This document shows positions 1 to 8,137 of a stretch of 8,137 bases of DNA, one piece after another. The notes under the pieces were generated by a model. That model had not been told where the DNA came from. It did no database searches and saw nothing but the letters and a program-made list of their open reading frames with translations. Positions within the stretch are counted from its first letter, which is position 1. Each line of letters begins with the position of its first letter. The stretch is from the IMG/VR virus record IMGVR_UViG_2778261702_000016. One strand, 5' to 3'. The translations under genes and the position numbers were made by a program. This DNA is from a virus (lineage: Duplodnaviria > Heunggongvirae > Uroviricota > Caudoviricetes).

Positions 1-259
1 CCACTGTACATCTGGCCACCCTGATACCTTCGCGTAACAACTGGCGCCAGACTTTACGCACACCGTACACCTGATGATTTTCATCGTATACGCGCTGTAT
101 CTCTCTCTTCAGCCAGTCATCGCGCTGCGCACGGGCACTGCGTTTATCCGGATGATGTCGCTGTTGCTGACAGTGGTAATACGTTGACGGGGCAATATGC
201 AGTTCACTGCATACCGGTCCGACCCCGTACTGCTCACGCAGCTTATCCAGCAGCGGCAT
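1..259 (-). CDS. IS3-family transposase OrfB (catalytic part), 5' 86 codons only, runs off window edge; normally made as an OrfAB fusion by -1 frameshifting
   Basis: Minus-strand frame from ATG at 259..257 translates [36 protein letters not shown]... with no stop to position 2; A-rich slippery run (plus strand TTTTTT 262..267) overlaps the orfA stop. Confidence 0.85.
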   Translation of the reverse strand, partial: MPLLDKLREQYGVGPVCSELHIAPSTYYHCQQQRHHPDKRSARAQRDDWLKREIQRVYDENHQVYGVRKVWRQLLREGIRVARCTV

Positions 260-585
260 TATTTTTTCCAGAGGCGGTCGAACTCCGCCTTCGCAAAATA
301 AGCGGAAGCCTGGCGAAGGATATCGTTACTGCGGCGCAGTTCACGATTTTCACGTTCCAGCTCTTTCAGACGCTGACGTTCAGCGGTGGTGAGTCCACCA
401 TCACCGCCCCCGGTATCCCGCTCATGCTGACGAACCCACACACGCAGAGTCTCTGGTGTACAGCCAATCTTTGGGGCAATGGAACAAATTGCCGCCCATT
501 GTGAGTCATATTCGCCCTGACTTTCCAGAACCATACGGACTGCCCGTTGACGGACCTCGGGGGAAAAACGTGTATTTTTAGTCAT
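259..585 (-). CDS. IS3-family transposase OrfA (helix-turn-helix DNA-binding part), IS629-like
   Basis: 108-aa [29 protein letters not shown]...[30 protein letters not shown] with leucine-zipper-like C-terminus typical of IS3 OrfA; start 55 bp inside the IS left end. Confidence 0.9.
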
Positions 586-639
586 CCTGTTTACCTCTTT
601 CTCAGGGAGTTTAGTCTCCAGGATTCCCGGGGCGGTTCA

Positions 640-1172
640 ATCTGCTGGCCGGAACTAATGAATTTATTGGTGAAGGTGACGCATACATTCCGCCTCATAC
701 AGGTCTGCCAGCAAACAGTACCGATATTGCACCGCCAGATATTCCGGCTGGCTTCGTGGCTGTTTTCAACAGTAATGAGGCATCGTGGCATCTCGTTGAA
801 GATCATCGGGGTAAAACGGTTTATGACGTGGCTTCCGGCGACGCGTTATTTATTTCTGAACTCGGTCCGTTACCGGAAAATGTTACCTGGTTGTCGCCGG
901 ATGGAGAGTGTCAGAAGTGGAACGGCACATCCTGGGCGAAAGATGCAGAAGCAGAAAAACTGTTTCGGGTACGGGAGGCAGAAGAAACAAAAAACAGCCT
1001 GATGCAGGTAGCCAGTGAGCATATTGCGCCACTTCAGGATGCCGTAGATTTGGATATTGCGACGGAGGAAGAGGCATCGTTACTGGCTGCATGGAAGACA
1101 TATCGGGTATTGTTGAATCGTGTTGATACAACAGTAGCAGCGGATGTTGAGTGGCCAGTCGCCCCACAATAA
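640..1172 (+). pseudogene. tfa: Tail fiber assembly protein (Tfa / P2 gpG family), 5'-truncated by the IS insertion at 639/640
   Basis: Frame open from 642 ([43 protein letters not shown]...[30 protein letters not shown], stop 1170..1172) with no ATG; the track start at 756 is a GTG. About 15 N-terminal codons are missing, replaced by the IS end. Confidence 0.85.
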
Positions 1173-1178
1173 AAAGAA

Positions 1179-1208
1179 AAAGCCATCGACAGAAATATCG
1201 ATGGCTTT
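1179..1208 (-). terminator. Intrinsic terminator for the acetyltransferase gene (possibly bidirectional, also behind tfa)
   Basis: Perfect 11-bp inverted repeat AAAGCCATCGA / TCGATGGCTTT (1179..1189 and 1198..1208) with 8-nt loop; on the minus strand it is followed by TTCTTTTTATT; sits between convergent stops at 1172 and 1216. Confidence 0.65.
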
Positions 1209-1215
1209 ATGTACT

Positions 1216-1788
1216 CTATTTATACAATACAACACCACTCTTTTTAGTTATATATGTGCAGTTTGATGGTATATCTTTATTTATAAAAGACATTGCACCT
1301 ATTTTTACATTATCCCCAATTTTACGTGATAATCCAATGATGCAACAATTAGCTCCGATATCAACGTTACTACCAATTTTTACTCTTGAACTAGGCATAT
1401 CACCATCTATCTGTCCAATGGTAGTATTCTGTCGTAATACCAGATTTTCACCCGCATCAACAGCAAAATGAACAACAATTCCAGCATGATGGGGAATTGT
1501 CAACCCTTTTCCAATATTTGCGCCCAATCCTATTTCACAACCAAACTTGTTAATTATTTTACTGTTTAACTTTTTGGCTGCTTTCTTATGTAATTTATTA
1601 CCATTAATATACATTTCGTTAGCCAACCGCCACCAGAAAAGGAAATTCCGGTTACGCTGCTTTTTCTCTCTTAAAAGCCTCCAGATATCCATACGTTTCC
1701 GCCGAATTACTTCATGTTTCCAGAAGTTTTTTAAATTAGTAGAGTTTCCAAATAAAACAAAGTGAATTGCCATTAAGTAAGATAGCAC
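1216..1788 (-). CDS. Hexapeptide-repeat (left-handed beta-helix) acetyltransferase, CysE/WcaB serine-acetyltransferase-like; probable polysaccharide O-acetyltransferase carried as phage cargo
   Basis: Motifs GCEIGLGANIGKGLTIPHHAGIVVHFAVDAGENLVLRQNTTIGQ...VKIGSNVDIGANCCIIG...IGDNVKIGAMSFINKDIPSN match the SAT/WcaB hexapeptide core. Start set at GTG 1788 (AAGGAG 6 nt upstream); longest ORF would start at ATG 1821. Stop TAG 1216..1218. Visibly AT-rich versus neighbours. Confidence 0.8.
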   Translation of the reverse strand: MLSYLMAIHFVLFGNSTNLKNFWKHEVIRRKRMDIWRLLREKKQRNRNFLFWWRLANEMYINGNKLHKKAAKKLNSKIINKFGCEIGLGANIGKGLTIPHHAGIVVHFAVDAGENLVLRQNTTIGQIDGDMPSSRVKIGSNVDIGANCCIIGLSRKIGDNVKIGAMSFINKDIPSNCTYITKKSGVVLYK

Positions 1789-1839
1789 GATAATCTCCTT
1801 AATTATTATTTCAGACCACACATGTTATAAGGTTAAGAG

Positions 1840-1868
1840 ATTATAAAATCCTGTTATTTGTTATTCAA
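1840..1868 (-). promoter_or_regulatory. Near-consensus sigma70 promoter driving the acetyltransferase gene
   Basis: Minus strand TTGAAT (1868..1863), 17-bp spacer, TATAAT (1845..1840); predicted transcript start about 1833, leaving a roughly 45-nt leader to the GTG at 1788. Confidence 0.55.
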
Positions 1869-1944
1869 AAACAATTTTCTGAGAAGGACATACAACAGCA
1901 AGTCGCCAGTCACCTTCATCAGGAAATTGGCGACATACGTTAAA

Positions 1945-2439
1945 TCAGAGCAGCCCCTTAACTGAGCTGGCCGCGCTATTAAGGGATGATGTCACCTTAT
2001 CTTTGAAGCCGGACAGCATATCGCTGAACGATGAGGATTGCAGGCGCTCCCGCAAATCCTCATCACAGCGTTCAAGAGTCAGTGAAAATTCTATCTTTTT
2101 CGCCTTACCGTAGCGATCAAACTCGGAGCGGGTCGTATTCGTTCCGGTCAGGACATACATGCCGTAAATCTGCCCGACGCCATCAATCAAAGGCCAAGGA
2201 CGTCCTGTATATGCCTGCGTGGTCAACAACGACAGCGACACTTCGCCACCAGTAATCTCAGGATAAAGAACACCAGAAAGAACGATGCGATCATCACCTG
2301 CACCGATATACTGCCAGCTTGCTGAACGGTTAACGCGTTCATTTTTCACATGTCGCCAGCTTTTGTTTTGCTGTAACTGCTGATGCGGCAACGTGCGCAG
2401 CTCAAAAACAAACATGCCGTAGATCATCATCATGGCCAT
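1945..2439 (-). CDS. Phage tail protein U (P2 gpU family)
   Basis: MAMMMIYGMFVFELRTLPHQQLQ...WQYIGAGDDRIVLSGVLYPEITGG...PWPLIDGVGQIYGMYVL...KIEFSLTLERCDE matches the gpU family pattern. AGGAG is spaced better for the second ATG (2433) than the first (2439). Confidence 0.85.
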   Translation of the reverse strand: MAMMMIYGMFVFELRTLPHQQLQQNKSWRHVKNERVNRSASWQYIGAGDDRIVLSGVLYPEITGGEVSLSLLTTQAYTGRPWPLIDGVGQIYGMYVLTGTNTTRSEFDRYGKAKKIEFSLTLERCDEDLRERLQSSSFSDMLSGFKDKVTSSLNSAASSVKGLL

Positions 2440-2445
2440 GACTCC

Positions 2446-3282
2446 TCAATCTTTATCGTAAAAACTGCCACGCCTGGCACGGGCGCGCCGTTCCATTTCT
2501 GCCCTGACCATTTCGCCGACCAGTTTCGCCAGTTCGCGGGGATTCTGCGTAACAACGTTATGCAGATGAACATGAATTTCACCGCCAAATCCGGAGGCAA
2601 CAGGCTCCCGGTTACGGGAAGTTGCAGGAACTGATGCCACTGGCGATCGTATGGCCTCCACCACCGGGCGGGAGCTGGCCGCAACAACAGGGACCAGCGC
2701 CGGAGGCAGCGGAGCCGGGACCACGGGTGTGATATTAATTGCGGGGGCAGGCTTACTGACCTGCGCAATCTTCCGCTCCTGCCACTCCCCACGAACAGCA
2801 AGTGCGCGGGGCAGGTTCTTAAAGACAATATCGCCGGGGCCAATGCGTTTTTTTGTCTCATCAACCAGCTTACCTGTGTTATCAGCAATTTTGCTGAGTC
2901 TGCGTAGCGTGCCGGTATTGCTGTCTGTGAGAGGTTTGTTGTCTTTGGGTTTATCATCTCCGGTGCCATTGCTATTTCCCGCAGACTTCGGCGGATTGAT
3001 TTTCGCAATGTCTCCCTGAAACAGAGCAACCTTGTCCTGAAGAATGGCCGCACGTTGTGCGTCTTCGATTTTCTTGCGCGCCCTTTCCGCTTCATCCGGA
3101 AGCACACCGAGTTTTTCAAGTATCCACGCCAGCGTATCCAGCAACATTTTTGCAGGCGTCAGAACAAGCTGTAACGCACCACCAAGAACGTTACCGAATA
3201 CCTCGCCAGCACTGGTACATTTATCCAGCGTTTCCTTGCTGGACTCCATCGGTGACAGCAGCGATTTAAACCAGTTAAACAC
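2446..3282 (-). CDS. Tail tape measure protein, C-terminal segment (second half of a frame-disrupted gene)
   Basis: Frame open from 3306 to stop at 2446; track start is a GTG at 3282. Sequence FNWFKSLLSPMESSKETL...REPVASGFGGEIHVHLHNVV... continues the upstream tape-measure ORF in a different frame; stop lies 6 nt before the gpU ribosome-binding site. Confidence 0.7.
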   Translation of the reverse strand: MFNWFKSLLSPMESSKETLDKCTSAGEVFGNVLGGALQLVLTPAKMLLDTLAWILEKLGVLPDEAERARKKIEDAQRAAILQDKVALFQGDIAKINPPKSAGNSNGTGDDKPKDNKPLTDSNTGTLRRLSKIADNTGKLVDETKKRIGPGDIVFKNLPRALAVRGEWQERKIAQVSKPAPAINITPVVPAPLPPALVPVVAASSRPVVEAIRSPVASVPATSRNREPVASGFGGEIHVHLHNVVTQNPRELAKLVGEMVRAEMERRARARRGSFYDKD

Positions 3283-5258
3283 CTGGCTGAACCGCTTCCG
3301 ATTACGTCAAAAACAGGGCCAAACCGTTCAAAGGTGTCGCGCAACGGGGTCAGCCTTTCCATAATCCCGCTGAACACCCCGGCAAAGAAAGCCCTGATAG
3401 GATCCCAGTATTTCCAGATAAGAACGGCAGCTCCGGCAAGCGCAGCCACGATAAGACCAACCGGACTGAACAACGCCCCGATAACGCCTCCCAGTAAAGA
3501 AACGGAACCCGTCACCATTCCCCATAGCGCAGGTAACACCCTGACGACATTCATTGACCGGGTAAGAATGTCAAAACCAAGACGCAGGGTGGCCAGCTTC
3601 CCGTAAAGCACCCCAATAACCAGCGACAACGAGCCAATCGTTGCAGTCATTGCCAGCAACGCACCGCCTGCTATCAGTAGCTGGCGCGTCAGTACCGGAT
3701 GGGCCTGCGCCAGCGAGGTGATTTTTTCAAGCACCCGCGTGAGCCACTGCGTGACAGAACGCAGCGGACCGTCAACCAGATCACTGATGCGAATACGAAG
3801 ACCTTCCCATGCGCTGTCGAGATTTTTCAGGTCCCCATCAAGATTATCAGCCATTACTTTTGCGACGCGATCGGCCTCTCCCCTTGCCCCCTGCAATTCT
3901 CTGGTCAGTTTTTGCAGCTCTCCTGAACCAGCCGCCGCAACAAGCGTCTGCAAACCAACGAACGCCTCTTCTCCGGCGATGTCCTTGAAGAAGGAGACCT
4001 GGTCCACCTGTCCGTATTTTTGTGTCGCCTTATAGAGATCAAGCAGCACATCCTCCATCGGGCGCATTTTGCCTCTGGCGTCAGCAACTGACACCCCCAG
4101 CTCTTTCAGTGCATCAGCCGCAGCTTTTGGCGGTGATGCAAGGCGGGACAGACTTGCGCGCATGGCCGTGCCAGCATCGCTTCCGCGAAGACCATTATTG
4201 GCAAGCATCCCGGCCATGGCCGCCGCTTCTTCAAGACTGATACCAAGTTTTGCGGCAACCGGACCGGTATACTTCATGGTTTCGCCCAGCGCGCGTAAAT
4301 CAGTATTGGTCCGGGTAAATGCTGCTGTCAGCGTATCGCCCACCCGGTCCATTTGATCGGCTGTCAGGTTGAACTGTGTGAGGATATTGGAGCCTATATC
4401 AGCCGTCTCGCCGAGTTCGACGCCACCTGCCAGCGCCATATTAAGAACACCGGGCAATGCGGCCTGAATGGCCTGCGGAGTAAAACCAGCCATTGCCAGA
4501 AAGCTCTGCCCACTGGCGGCATCACTCGCAGTAAACTGTGTTTCAGCAAGTTTTAACGCCTGCTCACGCAGCGCCTTAAACTGCGGGCTGTTTTTGTCGA
4601 TTCGCGTCAGTGCCTGAACGCGGGACATCTCTTTGCCGAACCCGATCGCAGGCTGCAAAAAACGCCCGGCAGCATAGCCGCCCGCCGCTGCCGCACCAAT
4701 TGCCAGCGCACCACCTGTTTTCAGTTTTCCCGCGGTTTCCTGCGCGTGCGAATACCGCTCACGCGCCTGCGTTACACGCGCAAGCGCCTGCCGTTCGCGT
4801 TCAAGCTGGTTGTTGTATTGTTCGGTGCGTCTGATGGCCTGCTGAATGGTGTTATCGCTGCCTGTCAGGGAAATGCCGTGGCGTTTCAGCTCTCCGCCAA
4901 GTTCCCTCATTTTCTGAATTTCCCGTGTGCGCGATTCATTCAGGCGTTCAAGCCGGGTGCTTAACTGCTGCATCAGCTTTTGTTGTTTTTCGCTGAGCAC
5001 TGTACCCGTGCGTTGTAACTGATTAAGGGCGTTAAGCTGGCGTCGTGCTTTCACGATGCCAGCATCCGCTTTACTGACAGCGTCGCGGGCGCGCTCAAAT
5101 GATCGCGCCTGACGCTCGAGATTTTTGATCGCCCCCTGCGTTCGCTGGATGGAGTCACCAAACTGCCCCATCAGGCGGCGTGCGTTTTCGGCAGGTCGGG
5201 TCAGCCTGTCAACGGCGCTGAAAGCGACCCGGATATCAAGAGTCTTCATTGTCTGCAT
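3159..5258 (-). CDS. Tail tape measure protein (P2 gpT-like), N-terminal segment; reading frame lost near 3290
   Basis: Long alpha-helical Q/R/L/A-rich ORF with Gly/Ala-rich transmembrane-like stretches typical of tape measure proteins, placed between chaperone and gpU. Track start 5285 is GTG; first ATGs at 5258 and 5249 overlap the E' stop. The last ~44 codons before the stop at 3159 look out-of-frame (SARCLTGLNRCCHRWSPARKRW...). Confidence 0.8.
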   Translation of the reverse strand: MQTMKTLDIRVAFSAVDRLTRPAENARRLMGQFGDSIQRTQGAIKNLERQARSFERARDAVSKADAGIVKARRQLNALNQLQRTGTVLSEKQQKLMQQLSTRLERLNESRTREIQKMRELGGELKRHGISLTGSDNTIQQAIRRTEQYNNQLERERQALARVTQARERYSHAQETAGKLKTGGALAIGAAAAGGYAAGRFLQPAIGFGKEMSRVQALTRIDKNSPQFKALREQALKLAETQFTASDAASGQSFLAMAGFTPQAIQAALPGVLNMALAGGVELGETADIGSNILTQFNLTADQMDRVGDTLTAAFTRTNTDLRALGETMKYTGPVAAKLGISLEEAAAMAGMLANNGLRGSDAGTAMRASLSRLASPPKAAADALKELGVSVADARGKMRPMEDVLLDLYKATQKYGQVDQVSFFKDIAGEEAFVGLQTLVAAAGSGELQKLTRELQGARGEADRVAKVMADNLDGDLKNLDSAWEGLRIRISDLVDGPLRSVTQWLTRVLEKITSLAQAHPVLTRQLLIAGGALLAMTATIGSLSLVIGVLYGKLATLRLGFDILTRSMNVVRVLPALWGMVTGSVSLLGGVIGALFSPVGLIVAALAGAAVLIWKYWDPIRAFFAGVFSGIMERLTPLRDTFERFGPVFDVIGSGSARCLTGLNRCCHRWSPARKRWINVPVLARYSVTFLVVRYSLF

Positions 5259-5765
5259 TCCCGCTGCGAAGTGCCGCCCGCTCACGCCAGCTAACCACTT
5301 CGCCGGGCGTCATCATGAAGATTTCGGCGGGCGACCAGTTAAAAATAACGGCAATATCTGCCACAAAGTCTTCTATGTGCTCAAAGCACACAACCGTGAT
5401 CAGGCTTCCGTCGCCTGTTCGTTCTTCCCGCCAGAGTCCGCACCGCTCAAAAAATTTACGGCAACCACACATAACTGAATAAAGTCACGGGATGCCATTT
5501 TTTTGATCGTCACTTCATCCAGTCGCGGTGATGTCACGCGTGACAGCAGCGTAAACATGGATTCCGCTTTCAGATTCAGCACATCAGACAGCGACAAATC
5601 TCGCAGAGATCCAGCCTGCTCAATAGCCCCGGTGATCTCCACATACGTGATTTTTTCGCCGCCTCGCTCAATTGGTTGGGTAAGTTTTACACCACGCTCA
5701 CTGGTTTCTTTCACAGTGTCAGTAACTACCGTGTTTTCGGTATCGATGTTTTTCGTCTCTTTCAT
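5236..5765 (-). CDS. Tail assembly chaperone E+E' (product of programmed -1 ribosomal frameshift)
   Basis: The -1 frame downstream of the slippery site reads FFERCGLWREERTGDGSLITVVCFEHIEDFVADIAVIFNWSPAEIFMMTPGEVVSWRERAALRSGNADNEDS to a stop at 5236..5238, giving the P2 E/E' arrangement immediately upstream of the tape measure gene. Confidence 0.65.
5400..5765 (-). CDS. Phage tail assembly chaperone (P2 gpE family)
   Basis: 121-aa ORF MKETKNIDTENTVVTDTVKETSERGVKLTQPIERGGEKITYVEITGA...; AAAGGAG ribosome-binding site (plus 5774..5780) 8 nt upstream of ATG 5765; small acidic protein between tube and tape measure genes. Confidence 0.85.
   Translation of the reverse strand: MKETKNIDTENTVVTDTVKETSERGVKLTQPIERGGEKITYVEITGAIEQAGSLRDLSLSDVLNLKAESMFTLLSRVTSPRLDEVTIKKMASRDFIQLCVVAVNFLSGADSGGKNEQATEA
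5448..5454 (-). promoter_or_regulatory. Slippery heptamer T_TTT_TTG for programmed -1 frameshifting E to E+E'
   Basis: Minus strand GTA AAT TTT TTG AGC in the E frame (VNFLS); the heptanucleotide TTTTTTG is the plus-strand CAAAAAA at 5448..5454. Confidence 0.6.
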
Positions 5766-5819
5766 CAGGAAACTCCTTTCAGTCAGAGGCGACGCACTGC
5801 GCCGCCTGCATATTACTTA

Positions 5820-6332
5820 TCAGCCAAGCCCAAGCGCGGAACGGATGCGATCGGGCACAATGTCCTTGCCGTCCTTCCGGTAAATGAAGTTCAGCAGGTC
5901 AATCTCCCACAACGGGCGATCGTTAACACTCAGCTTGTAGTAGGTGTTTTTAATGGCGTAAGTGTGTGATGTGGCTTCGCCCTGTTTGGCTTCCCCCATA
6001 TCAATTTCCGTCACACGTCCGCGCATTTCGACTTCATACAGGTCGCTTTCATCATCGGTGTAGTATTCCCCCGCAAAACGCAGTAGCGTGCCGTCAATCG
6101 TGCCGCCATACTTCAGGAACAGCTCACGAACTGCGCCCCCCATGACAAAGCTCGCATCAAGCGCGGAGTCGTCCAGGCCGAGGTCAATACTTACCGCACC
6201 CATCATGCCACCACCCCGGTAGCTGTCGGTTTTGCGCGTCAGTTTAGGCAGGGTGACGGACGTCACCTTACCCACTTCGTTTTCACCATCCACAAACAGC
6301 GTAAAAAAGCGAAGATGTTTTGGTACAGCCAT
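5820..6332 (-). CDS. Phage major tail tube protein (P2 gpFII family)
   Basis: 170-aa ORF MAVPKHLRFFTLFVDGENEVGKVTSVTLPKLTRKTDSYRGGGMMGAVSIDLGLD...YYKLSVNDRPLWEIDLLN matches the FII tail tube pattern; start ATG overlaps the sheath stop. Confidence 0.9.
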   Translation of the reverse strand: MAVPKHLRFFTLFVDGENEVGKVTSVTLPKLTRKTDSYRGGGMMGAVSIDLGLDDSALDASFVMGGAVRELFLKYGGTIDGTLLRFAGEYYTDDESDLYEVEMRGRVTEIDMGEAKQGEATSHTYAIKNTYYKLSVNDRPLWEIDLLNFIYRKDGKDIVPDRIRSALGLG

Positions 6333-7516
6333 CAGGCACCTCCCAGCACCGCAAATGCGGGACCAAAGAATTCATCAGTAAACGACTGGTAAAGCTCCAT
6401 GTCTTCCAGCGGAGGAACGGGCGTATATTTGTAGCGAATACGCACACGCCCCTGACGTAAATTCGTGGTGCTGTTATCCTCGATGTCATACCAGCACTCC
6501 GCGCCAATCAGTTTCCCGGCAGTAACCAGTGAATCCAGTTTTGCCCTGATGGCACTGATAACATCCTTCACGTTCGCAGGTGTCAGTGGACTGTCGATGG
6601 TTTCAAACTGCGCTTCCGCAATTGAATCAGCCAGCACCTGTGCGGTTCGGGTATACACCTCAAAGATGTAGGCGTTCGTTTCCGGTGTGCGGTTGCCCCA
6701 GAAGCGGAACCCGTTGCGACGAATAATGGTCGTGATTTCTTTGTTGTTGAGGCTGTTGGCATCACTGTCTTCGGCCTGCAACGACCAGAACACATGCCTC
6801 GACATCCCAAGCACATTTTTAACCGGAACGTTGGACAGCGATTTGTGCCAGCCCTGCTCATGGTCAATGTACGCACGAAGGCCGCACGCATAAGCAGGCG
6901 CGGGGAACGTTTCGTTTTTGCCACTTTTCAGGTTGTAGGCGATGAAGTCAGGCCATAAGAGCATCACCTCACGTTCGTTGAATTTCTGGCGGTAGGTAAT
7001 CGCCTCAGCCATCGTGTTACAACCATGACATGTGGCATACACAAACGCGCGCAGTTTACCCGCAATCACGCACAGGGATTTTGTTACCGCCTCCGTGTCC
7101 AGCTCCGGCGCGGCCAGAATACGCGGACGGTATCCGATGCTTTCATCCTGCTCTGCAACAAGCAGCGCATACATCCCCGTATAGCTGCCGTCAGATTCAG
7201 AACCACCGATAACCAGTTGATCCTGCGTCTTACCGCCTTCTTCTTTGTGTTCAGCCACGCGAACGACGATCACTTTTGTGCTCACCTGGTCTGCGATAGC
7301 CTTAAGCGCACGATAAAGCGTCCCCGTAGTCCCGCATTTTCCCAGCACGTCATTGACGCGGGTCAGCAGTGTGGGCTTGTTCAGCGGGAACAGCTCCGCG
7401 TCCGCATCATCTGCCGTTGCCACGATACCGATAACACTGGAATCAACATCATTAATCGCTGTTACCAGGTCGGTACTTTCCGTAACACGGGCACCATGAA
7501 AACGAGTTTCACTCAT
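6332..7516 (-). CDS. Phage tail sheath protein (P2 gpFI family)
   Basis: 394-aa ORF MSETRFHGARVTESTDLVTAINDVDSSVIGIVATADDADAELFPLNKPTLLT...FRFWGNRTPETNAYIFEVYTRTAQVL... typical of contractile sheath proteins; AAGGGG 9 nt upstream of ATG 7516. Confidence 0.9.
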   Translation of the reverse strand: MSETRFHGARVTESTDLVTAINDVDSSVIGIVATADDADAELFPLNKPTLLTRVNDVLGKCGTTGTLYRALKAIADQVSTKVIVVRVAEHKEEGGKTQDQLVIGGSESDGSYTGMYALLVAEQDESIGYRPRILAAPELDTEAVTKSLCVIAGKLRAFVYATCHGCNTMAEAITYRQKFNEREVMLLWPDFIAYNLKSGKNETFPAPAYACGLRAYIDHEQGWHKSLSNVPVKNVLGMSRHVFWSLQAEDSDANSLNNKEITTIIRRNGFRFWGNRTPETNAYIFEVYTRTAQVLADSIAEAQFETIDSPLTPANVKDVISAIRAKLDSLVTAGKLIGAECWYDIEDNSTTNLRQGRVRIRYKYTPVPPLEDMELYQSFTDEFFGPAFAVLGGA

Positions 7517-7673
7517 AGCTTCAGCCCCTTGTATCCGTTAAATGATTCGGCAACAATCATCACCCACCACGCGCGTAATCTCACCCCTGCGCCGTTCTCC
7601 CGCCACGGCGACAACAAAAAGCAGTAACCCCCTCCGCACGCACATGCGACCATGCCGCACAGGGAGGGAACAG

Positions 7674-7940
7674 ATGACCGACACCACCATGCAATTGCTC
7701 AGTCAGGGCACAGACCACGTGAAAGTGCCGGATTTTGATATTCTCGCGGAGGGTAAAACGCTGTCAGGCGTGGCAGAGCGCCTGATGAGCCTGTCACTGA
7801 CCGACAACCGGGGATTTGAGGCGGACCAGCTCACCATCACGCTGGATGATGCAGATGGTCAGTTGCAGCTACCGCCACGGGGCGCGCGCCTGACGGTTCT
7901 CATTGGCTGGAAAGGAGAACCGCTGACAGAAAAAGGCACT
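7674..7940 (+). pseudogene. Phage late control gene D (gpD family tail protein), 3'-truncated after codon 89
   Basis: ATG 7674 preceded by GGGAGGG; MTDTTMQLLSQGTDHVKVPDFDILAEGKTLSGVAERLMSLSLTDNRGFEADQLTITLDDADGQLQLPPRGARLTVLIGWKGEPLTEKGT matches the gpD N-terminus (SLTDNRGFEAD.LTITLDD motif), then homology stops at 7941 and the frame terminates within 20 codons. Confidence 0.8.
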
Positions 7941-8010
7941 TGTAGATTCAATCTGTCAATGCAACACCCCTTTCAATTATCTCTTTCGGTGTTTTGAACT
8001 TCAGTGTCTT
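7941..8010 (+). mobile_element. Terminal fragment of an IS30-family element (inverted-repeat end), truncated by the IS3-family insertion at 8011
   Basis: 7941..7966 TGTAGATTCAATCTGTCAATGCAACA matches 23 of 26 positions of the IS30 terminal inverted repeat as I recall it (TGTAGATTCAATTGGTCAACGCAACA); starts exactly where gpD homology ends. Confidence 0.5.
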
Positions 8011-8137
8011 TGAACCGCCCCGGAAATCCTGGAGACTAAACTCCCTGAGAAAGAGGTAAACAGGATGACTAAAAATACTCGTTTTTCCCCCGAAGTCCGT
8101 CAGCGGGCGATTCGTATGGTTCTGGAAAGTCAGGATG
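8011..8137 (+). mobile_element. Second IS3-family insertion sequence (IS629-group, distinct variant), left end; runs off window
   Basis: Starts TGAACCGCCCCGGAAATCCTGGAGACTAAACTCCCTGAGAAAGAGGTAAACAGG; 118 of 127 aligned bases match the reverse complement of 513..639. Confidence 0.9.
8065..8137 (+). CDS. IS3-family transposase OrfA, first 24 codons (partial at window edge)
   Basis: ATG at 8065 after GAGG; translates [24 protein letters not shown], paralogous to the OrfA at 585..259 (V to I at residue 16). Confidence 0.85.
   Translation, partial: MTKNTRFSPEVRQRAIRMVLESQD

Follow-up and report, generated by a model that had tools for sequence, protein, structure and literature searches.

An old IS629 remnant and a recent IS1203 flank the tail genes of cryptic prophage Sp13 in Escherichia coli O157:H7

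The stretch of DNA analyzed here (the window) is the whole 8,137-nucleotide virus record IMGVR_UViG_2778261702_000016 (Caudoviricetes), in which two insertion sequences (IS) of the IS629 group lie in inverted orientation around a set of tail genes. An earlier, sequence-only reading of the window took the two copies for distinct, independently inserted elements and proposed that the segment between them has the architecture of a composite transposon that could be mobilised or inverted as a unit. The present analysis identifies the window with high confidence as a tail-gene remnant of a cryptic P88-like (P2-family) prophage that is bracketed by two separately arrived IS629-group elements. The inverted pair combines a recent IS1203 with a remnant of an older IS629 that is broken; IS traffic of this sort is ordinary and already on record, and the pair is not a transposon. 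The coordinates of all features are collected in Table 1.

The origin of the window was established by searches against 5,426 complete genomes. A 100% match to complete genomes of E. coli O157:H7 was obtained, and the window corresponds to the tail module of the cryptic prophage Sp13 of strain Sakai (CP-933T of strain EDL933), with which it has both the gene set and the locus between yecA and the leuZ-cysT-glyW tRNA genes in common. The arrangement in EDL933 is identical. Positions 1-7940 are identical to strains TW14359, UTME-4, and F6667 (loci L002-L004), and the right-hand junction of the window appears in strain Z1323HEC0494 (locus L001), where two bases are the only differences from the window. 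Both IS copies were read at full length from these four loci. Positions 1939-7941 align in one piece, at 91-97% identity, to 13 phage records whose coverage of the query is 80% or more, among them 500465-2, P88, PhiR44_2, and P884B11. The order of the genes, with the tail fibre assembly gene (tfa) followed by U-T-E'-E-tube-sheath on the opposite strand and then by D, is that of the P88 annotation and of the P88-like genus Xuanwuvirus, unlike the canonical P2 order. The annotation of the locus in Sakai reads "prophage Sp13, P2-like phage", a label that hides the Xuanwuvirus-type gene order. An internal inversion of the sheath-to-U operon, which the P2 order would suggest, was considered and rejected, as the P88-like phages are colinear with the window in one piece.

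The longest inverted repeat of the window has its arms at 516-640 and 8010-8134 (125 nt, 94% complementary), which is far beyond chance; all of the other inverted pairs in the window are 25 nt or shorter. The IS termini TGAACCGCC... appear at 639 for the left copy (minus strand) and at 8011 for the right copy (plus strand), and the sequence TGAACCGCCCC is read leftwards from 639 and rightwards from 8011. The matching base 640/8010 belongs to the flanks and lies outside both elements. The two copies are therefore inverted and non-identical, with their left ends (IRL) facing inward around approximately 7.37 kb, as had been proposed. The alignment also reproduces the reported count of 9 mismatches in the 127 comparable bases, at IS nucleotides 14, 69, 84, 93, 99, 100, 102, 125, and 126. 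The coding changes V16I and G24D in OrfA fall within the compared stretch, and T67S falls past it. A full-length comparison had been set beforehand as the test that could overturn the distinctness of the copies. The copies are non-identical well beyond the compared ends, with differences at 50 of 1057 positions that are spread along the element without gaps (95.3% identity); identical runs reach 125 bp at most.

Both copies carry the hallmarks of the IS3 family. The terminal inverted repeat (5'-TG ... CA-3') is found as TGAACCGCCCCGG at 8011 on the plus strand and at 639 on the minus strand, and orfA and orfB are joined by a programmed -1 frameshift. The Pfam domain HTH_Tnp_1 is detected in both orfA copies, and rve, HTH_21, and rve_3 are detected in the orfB of the full copy. 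The IS629 sub-types of O157:H7 were reported to diverge by 4-5%, sub-type I resembling IS1203 and sub-type III resembling an element of O26:H11 (Rump et al. 2011, PMC3271280). The divergence of the pair in the window matches this range for IS629/IS1203 (IS3 family, IS51 group). Judged by their sequences, the two copies appear to belong to two IS629 sub-types already described in O157.

The right copy was characterized in strain Z1323HEC0494, where the element is 1310 bp long, has both terminal inverted repeats (the right one, IRR, ending ...CCGGGGCGGTTCA), and is flanked on either side by a 3-bp duplication, CTT. The Prokaryotic Genome Annotation Pipeline (PGAP) names it an IS3-like element IS1203 family transposase. 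The 3-4 bp target duplication expected of a separate insertion is thus present around the right copy, and a complete length of approximately 1310 bp is reached by the right copy only. No difference in 1310 positions was found from IS1203 copies at other positions in UTME-4 and F6667. The element is inserted 70 bp into an IS30 copy that interrupts tail gene D; no IS629-type element is present in the IS30 copy of either Sakai or EDL933, and this exact site is occupied in 1 of the 5,426 genomes, that of Z1323HEC0494. The right copy is recent and strain-specific. These results bear out the proposal of independent insertions, since the right copy is bounded by a target duplication of its own, is identical to IS1203 at other sites, and is absent from Sakai and EDL933. 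The site (IS30 position 70, target duplication CTT) is not among the 47 sites of Rump et al. (PMC3271280). A second Sp13 site in that list, IS.33 (target duplication CAG, flanks GCTCAGACAG and CAGTGTCAGG), was reported only from EC4115 and TW14359. It is the copy extracted here from TW14359, which is of the other sub-type and, within the same IS30, sits 909 bp deeper than the right copy of the window.

The left copy is of the second O157 sub-type, probably sub-type III of Rump et al. Its colinearity with IS1203 extends over 1057-1058 bp, up to a deletion junction with prophage DNA; IRR is absent, and PGAP marks the copy as incomplete with a missing C-terminus. Its OrfB ends ...STGSTGDSYD, before the NAMAES stretch, so that the C-terminal 70 residues and the Pfam rve_3 region (218-278) are lost. 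The NAMAES stretch would be the site of the catalytic glutamate, given the DD(35)E spacing of the IS3 family. The run GGAAAAAATGA at the orfA stop lies within the frameshift region and is the putative slippery site under the IS3-family model. PGAP describes the copy as frameshifted; a genuine extra frameshift was rejected, as the alignment to IS1203 is free of gaps and contains only the programmed frameshift. The left copy differs from the full-length sub-type III copy of TW14359 at 9 of 1058 positions, and the latter differs from IS1203 at 61 of 1310. The left copy is already catalogued as site IS.14 of Rump et al. 2011 (PMC3271280, Table S2), a truncated Sp13 copy of approximately 1057 bp with the downstream flank ATCTGCTGGC in Sakai, EDL933, EC4115, and TW14359. 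A junction query against the 5,426 genomes, from the flank of the partition gene stb through the IS into tfa, returned the same stump in 264 genomes.

The ancestral state of the left junction is provided by strain 493/89, whose sorbitol-fermenting O157 lineage was reported to be without IS629 (PMC3271280). A complete prophage occupies the same locus in 493/89 (L011/L012), extending from portal to tail fibre, with an intact 579-bp tfa, a 2808-bp tape-measure gene, a full 1221-bp IS30 that interrupts D and is flanked by the same CT duplication, the remainder of D, ogr, and hok. The inner 7.37 kb of the window are 99.92% identical to 493/89, the differences being two substitutions and deletions of 1 bp and 3 bp in the tape-measure gene. 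The two stretches next to the left IS in O157:H7 are separated by approximately 16.4 kb in 493/89; the left IS therefore marks a deletion that took the outer 253 bp of the element as well as the head, baseplate, and fibre genes. The outer flank is accordingly a deletion junction, ...AAAATACA joined to TTGTCATACG, with no target duplication. The D::IS30 allele is already present in the IS629-free strain 493/89, and the IS30 insertion thus predates the IS629 events. In the proposed course of events, an IS629 of the second sub-type first inserted at codon 15 of tfa. A deletion of approximately 16.4 kb then took away head, baseplate, and fibre genes along with the outer 253 bp of the IS and left the 1057-bp stump, which cannot transpose. 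Much later, and in one sub-lineage, an IS1203 (sub-type I) entered the IS30 already in D with a 3-bp duplication of CTT; transposition by copy-out/paste-in is assumed here from what is known of the IS3 family.

A different origin of the pair would be one local duplication, or a recently formed composite transposon, whose two copies have diverged in place or through patchy gene conversion. Small patches that switch sub-type do exist, at window positions 406 and 408 relative to Z1323HEC0494. Against this, the copies differ by 4.7% whereas the DNA between them differs by only 0.08% between O157:H7 and 493/89, and the differences between the copies run along their whole length. Moreover, the right copy is identical to IS1203 elsewhere, and most of the genomes with the left copy are without the right copy. 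A common local origin is thus very improbable, and nothing contradicts the independent origin of the two copies.

The proposal of a composite transposon was examined at the outer ends of the pair. In a working composite, the transposase would use the two outer ends and move the 7.4-kb tail module. The inverted copies do bracket a segment, and the right copy is complete and, given identical copies at many sites in other strains, probably active. The left copy, however, has neither its outer IRR nor the last 70 residues of OrfB, and the pair therefore has a single outer end. A search of the outer flanks for a common target duplication also failed to support the proposal: CTT on both sides of the right IS is the mark of a single-IS insertion, and the outer flank of the left IS is the deletion junction. 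Nor has the bracketed segment been mobilised as a unit, as it is still at its original prophage position, colinear with the IS629-free prophage of 493/89, and in every locus examined the module is located between the partition genes of the prophage and its right end (yecA-leuZ). Two usable outer ends, one duplication around the unit, and more than one genomic location would mark a composite transposon, and none of the three was found. From the geometry of the IS ends, IRL ends that face inward would be able to drive inside-out events at most. Elements of the IS3 family transpose via IS circles that join IRL to IRR, which makes composites uncommon. The classical composites Tn10, Tn5, and Tn9 likewise consist of two IS copies around a segment, inverted in Tn10 and Tn5 as they are here; unlike in these, one IS of the window is a stump without an outer end, and there is neither a common duplication nor evidence of movement. 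A working composite transposon has next to no probability. The inverted, inward-facing arrangement of the stump and the IS1203 arose by coincidence from two separate events, in a region that is rich in IS elements and selectively neutral. An apparent composite-transposon architecture in an IS-rich genome can arise from unrelated insertions, and outer IS ends need to be checked before mobility is proposed.

The pair might nevertheless serve as a substrate for homologous recombination, in which case the tail module would flip or be lost at appreciable frequency in nature. It offers 1057 bp of inverted homology with identical runs of up to 125 bp; IS-adjacent deletions are common at the locus; and in 19 genomes of the TW14359 type the inverted pair is 99.15% identical. 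A 3.5-kb query made of the left flank and the reverse complement of the D side, which is bridged whatever the position of the right IS, was used to search for the inverted junction. It was found in 0 of the 5,426 genomes at a coverage of at least 80%, whereas the control query of parallel design with the normal junction matched 264 genomes, so the design works. A loss query detected no O157 genome without the module; its single match was an O111:H21 relative with a different architecture. The comparison of strains therefore does not support inversion or loss of positions 640..8010, and assemblies report the majority state only, such that rare sub-populations would escape. That divergence between the copies lowers the efficiency of recombination, as the sequence-only reading held, is a reasonable expectation; none of the 19 genomes with the 99.15% pair is inverted, and these genomes therefore do not show divergence to be the factor that prevents recombination. 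Appreciable flipping or loss of the module is very unlikely.

Three points weigh against the two-insertion history as it is told above. The names of the sub-types are taken from PGAP ("IS1203 family"), the Sakai annotation ("IS629 transposase OrfB", "IS1203 Family: IS3 partial"), and PMC3271280 and not from a comparison with ISfinder. The order of events at the left junction, insertion and then deletion, is inferred. In addition, the module is enclosed by two inverted IS copies, both of full length, in a variant lineage of eight O157:H7 genomes, Gim1-1 and NCCP 13918 among them. On the left, this lineage has a full-length IS1203; compared with the stump, its junctions retain an extra 7 bp of the ancestral left flank and 4 bp fewer of tfa. 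The right copy is a full-length sub-type III element with 0 mismatches in 1057 positions to the stump of the window; an 11-bp internal fragment of IS629 precedes it, and on its far side D', IS30, and further DNA have been lost. A single insertion followed by a single deletion is therefore too simple a history for the left junction. On either side of the module, two different IS copies stop only a few bases apart. A recombinant origin of the left IS1203 of the variant lineage (G at IS nucleotide 14) was considered, and the evidence was insufficient, with 60 of 61 diagnostic sites in the sub-type I state; nucleotide 14 may simply vary among IS1203 copies.

The sole two differences between the window and Z1323HEC0494, at 406 and 408 (IS nucleotides 234 and 232), affect sites of the left IS that are diagnostic of sub-type and change one state, I or III, into the other. 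Of the nine positions at which the stump and the TW14359 copy differ, six likewise switch the sub-type state. This pattern in the sequences suggests short gene-conversion patches among IS copies.

The IS30 copy in gene D was then considered as a repeated target. It is 1172-1175 bp long in O157:H7 (Sakai L005 20108-21279) and 1221 bp long in 493/89. A 49-bp deletion near the left (IRL) end (Sakai L005 21190-21279) in O157:H7 removes the start of the transposase gene, and the O157:H7 copy is therefore itself immobile. The same D::IS30 allele was also seen in the non-O157 strain SMN013SH2. Insertions were located with a query composed of 1 kb of the D side and 400 bp of the IS left end, the gap between the matching pieces giving the position. 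The first list, in which pieces were joined on one strand only, was biased toward a single orientation, and a mirror query was added. An IS was found in 49 genomes in the orientation of the window and in 5 genomes in the opposite orientation, with verified duplications in 3 of these 5; 17 loci were fetched to verify duplications. At least 14 independent IS629-type insertions were identified within the approximately 1.17 kb of IS30, each with its own 3-4 bp duplication. Thirteen are from O157:H7 and one is from another lineage; 11 have one orientation and 3 the other. A strict orientation bias was rejected on the strength of the 5 genomes from the reverse query, and the ratio of 11:3 is not decisive. 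Position 58 was also rejected as an independent site, as strain 8_140198 keeps the right junction of a 979-type insertion followed by an IS-adjacent deletion.

The same two-query design was applied as a control to the tape-measure pseudogene, with positions 2300-3299 as the anchor and the next 1.2 kb as the target. No O157 insertion was found in this 1.2-kb target, where one site is common to four non-O157 genomes; two O157 insertions were found inside the anchor. For 13 insertions against 0, equal rates give a probability of approximately 2e-4 (two-sided sign test), for a single control region and uncorrected for phylogeny. Rump et al. (PMC3271280) knew of no hot spot or target preference of IS629 and noted that it often lies among other IS elements. 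We put at about even chances the proposition that the defective IS30 in D of Sp13 is a genuine preferred target of IS629-type elements, and such a hot spot may already be described in the literature. If true, the preference would offer a handle on IS629 target selection, which was called unknown (PMC3271280), and possibly a natural assay. The IS30 hot-spot behaviour is the only part of the analysis that might repay further work, and the finding itself is otherwise of little weight. IS629 insertion at the right end of Sp13 is hypervariable: most of the 264 genomes have no element there, and the others carry one at any of more than 14 alternative positions. This variation could refine IS-based typing of O157:H7, and short-read assemblies and IS-printing primers may misread the site.

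Deletions adjacent to an IS and derived from insertions in IS30 were found in 8_140198, CEC13002, and 08-3914. Together with the variant lineage, these strains resemble in structure the excision of IS629 associated with the IS-excision enhancer (IEE) in enterohaemorrhagic E. coli as outlined in PMC9943667 and bioRxiv 10.1101/2023.06.07.543989, in that IS-adjacent deletions without target duplications occur here too; one end-point lies inside the left IS. The IS30 of Sakai and Z1323HEC0494 is without 3 bp, AGT, and reads CCAGATCT-TCATG, compared with CCAGATCTAGTTCATG in TW14359 and 493/89. The gap is at IS30 position ~108-110 (Sakai L005 ~20215; L001 ~21357), beside the position-107 site used in 9 genomes, and may be the scar of an imprecise excision.

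Table 1. Features of the window, IS copies of the variant lineage, and IS629-type insertion sites in the IS30 copy of gene D
Feature	Position	Strand	Remarks
Left IS629-group copy, IS nt 1-639 in window	1..639	-	IRL TGAACCGCCCCGGGAATCC leftwards from 639
5' part of orfB, left copy	1..262	-	Frame closes outside the window after 226 of 296 residues
Programmed -1 frameshift region, ALIL pseudoknot, left copy	188..304	-	Rfam RF01497, 120.9 bits (gathering threshold 50)
orfA of left copy, intact, 108 aa	259..585	-	Pfam HTH_Tnp_1, E 1.3e-12; 3 aa differ from right type
tfa without its first 15 codons (45 bp)	640..1172	+	Pfam Caudo_TAP, E 5e-40
Hexapeptide-repeat (serine O-acetyltransferase-like) cargo gene	1216..1788	-	PGAP WP_000954203.1, identical in 493/89
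Tail protein, gpU position	1945..2433	-	PGAP; colinear with P88 gp44
Tape measure pseudogene	2446..5249	-	Open reading frame split at ~3282; PGAP marks frameshifted
gpE / gpE+E' tail chaperone genes	5236..5765	-	PGAP: GpE family 5236-5391, tail protein 5400-5765
Tail tube gene	5820..6332	-	PGAP; P88 colinearity
Tail sheath gene	6332..7516	-	PGAP; P88 colinearity
Tail gene D, 5' fragment (first 267 bp) cut by IS30	7674..7940	+	PGAP marks incomplete
IS30, first 70 bp (IRR end)	7941..8010	-	TGTAGATTCAATCTGTCAATGCAACA begins at 7941; CTT at 8008-8010 is the right-IS target duplication
First 127 bp of the complete 1310-bp IS1203 (IS629 sub-type I)	8011..8137	+	orfA start 8065; identical to the L001 copy
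IS copies of the variant lineage	L013 3394-4703 and 11652-12961		Also in L008/L009
Insertion sites in IS30, window orientation	IS30 27, 70, 107, 118		Duplications CAC, CTT, TCT, GTTG
Insertion site in IS30, window orientation	IS30 151		Duplication AAA; non-O157 strain, third IS variant
Insertion sites in IS30, window orientation	IS30 414, 481, 617, 796, 841, 979		Duplications GTG, GTT, GTGT, CGG, AAC, CAG
Insertion sites in IS30, opposite orientation	IS30 49, 151, 250		Duplications CGG, GTA, AAA

The genes between the IS copies follow the P88-like order given above. The IS30 in gene D is flanked by a 2-bp target duplication, CT, at 7939-7940, and the D frame ...EKGTYIVDEIAHEG is restored once IS30 and one CT are removed. 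Relative to the intact 2808-bp tape-measure gene of 493/89 and HUSEC2011, the gene in the window has a 1-bp deletion near 3291, which causes the frameshift, and a 3-bp in-frame deletion near 4546.

The cargo gene between tfa and U is found in Sp13, in 493/89, and in the O104:H4 strain HUSEC2011. The Pfam Hexapep match to its product is weak (24.1 bits, with a cut-off of 27). At the same position, P88 has an invertible tail-fibre segment and a DNA invertase instead of the acetyltransferase gene, and this is a swap of cargo genes at a known variable spot.

An intact 579-bp tfa is present in HUSEC2011 and 493/89, and the homology of the window begins at AATCTGCTGG. PGAP treats the shortened tfa as intact and calls a 176-residue "tail fiber assembly protein" (WP_001310336.1) that starts one base past the IS, apparently at a CTG codon; the real gene encodes 192 residues, and its first 15 codons were lost to the IS and the deletion. 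The 3' half of the tfa coding sequence contains a match to Rfam IS009 (RF02111) of 191 bits at window positions 937-1135 on the plus strand.

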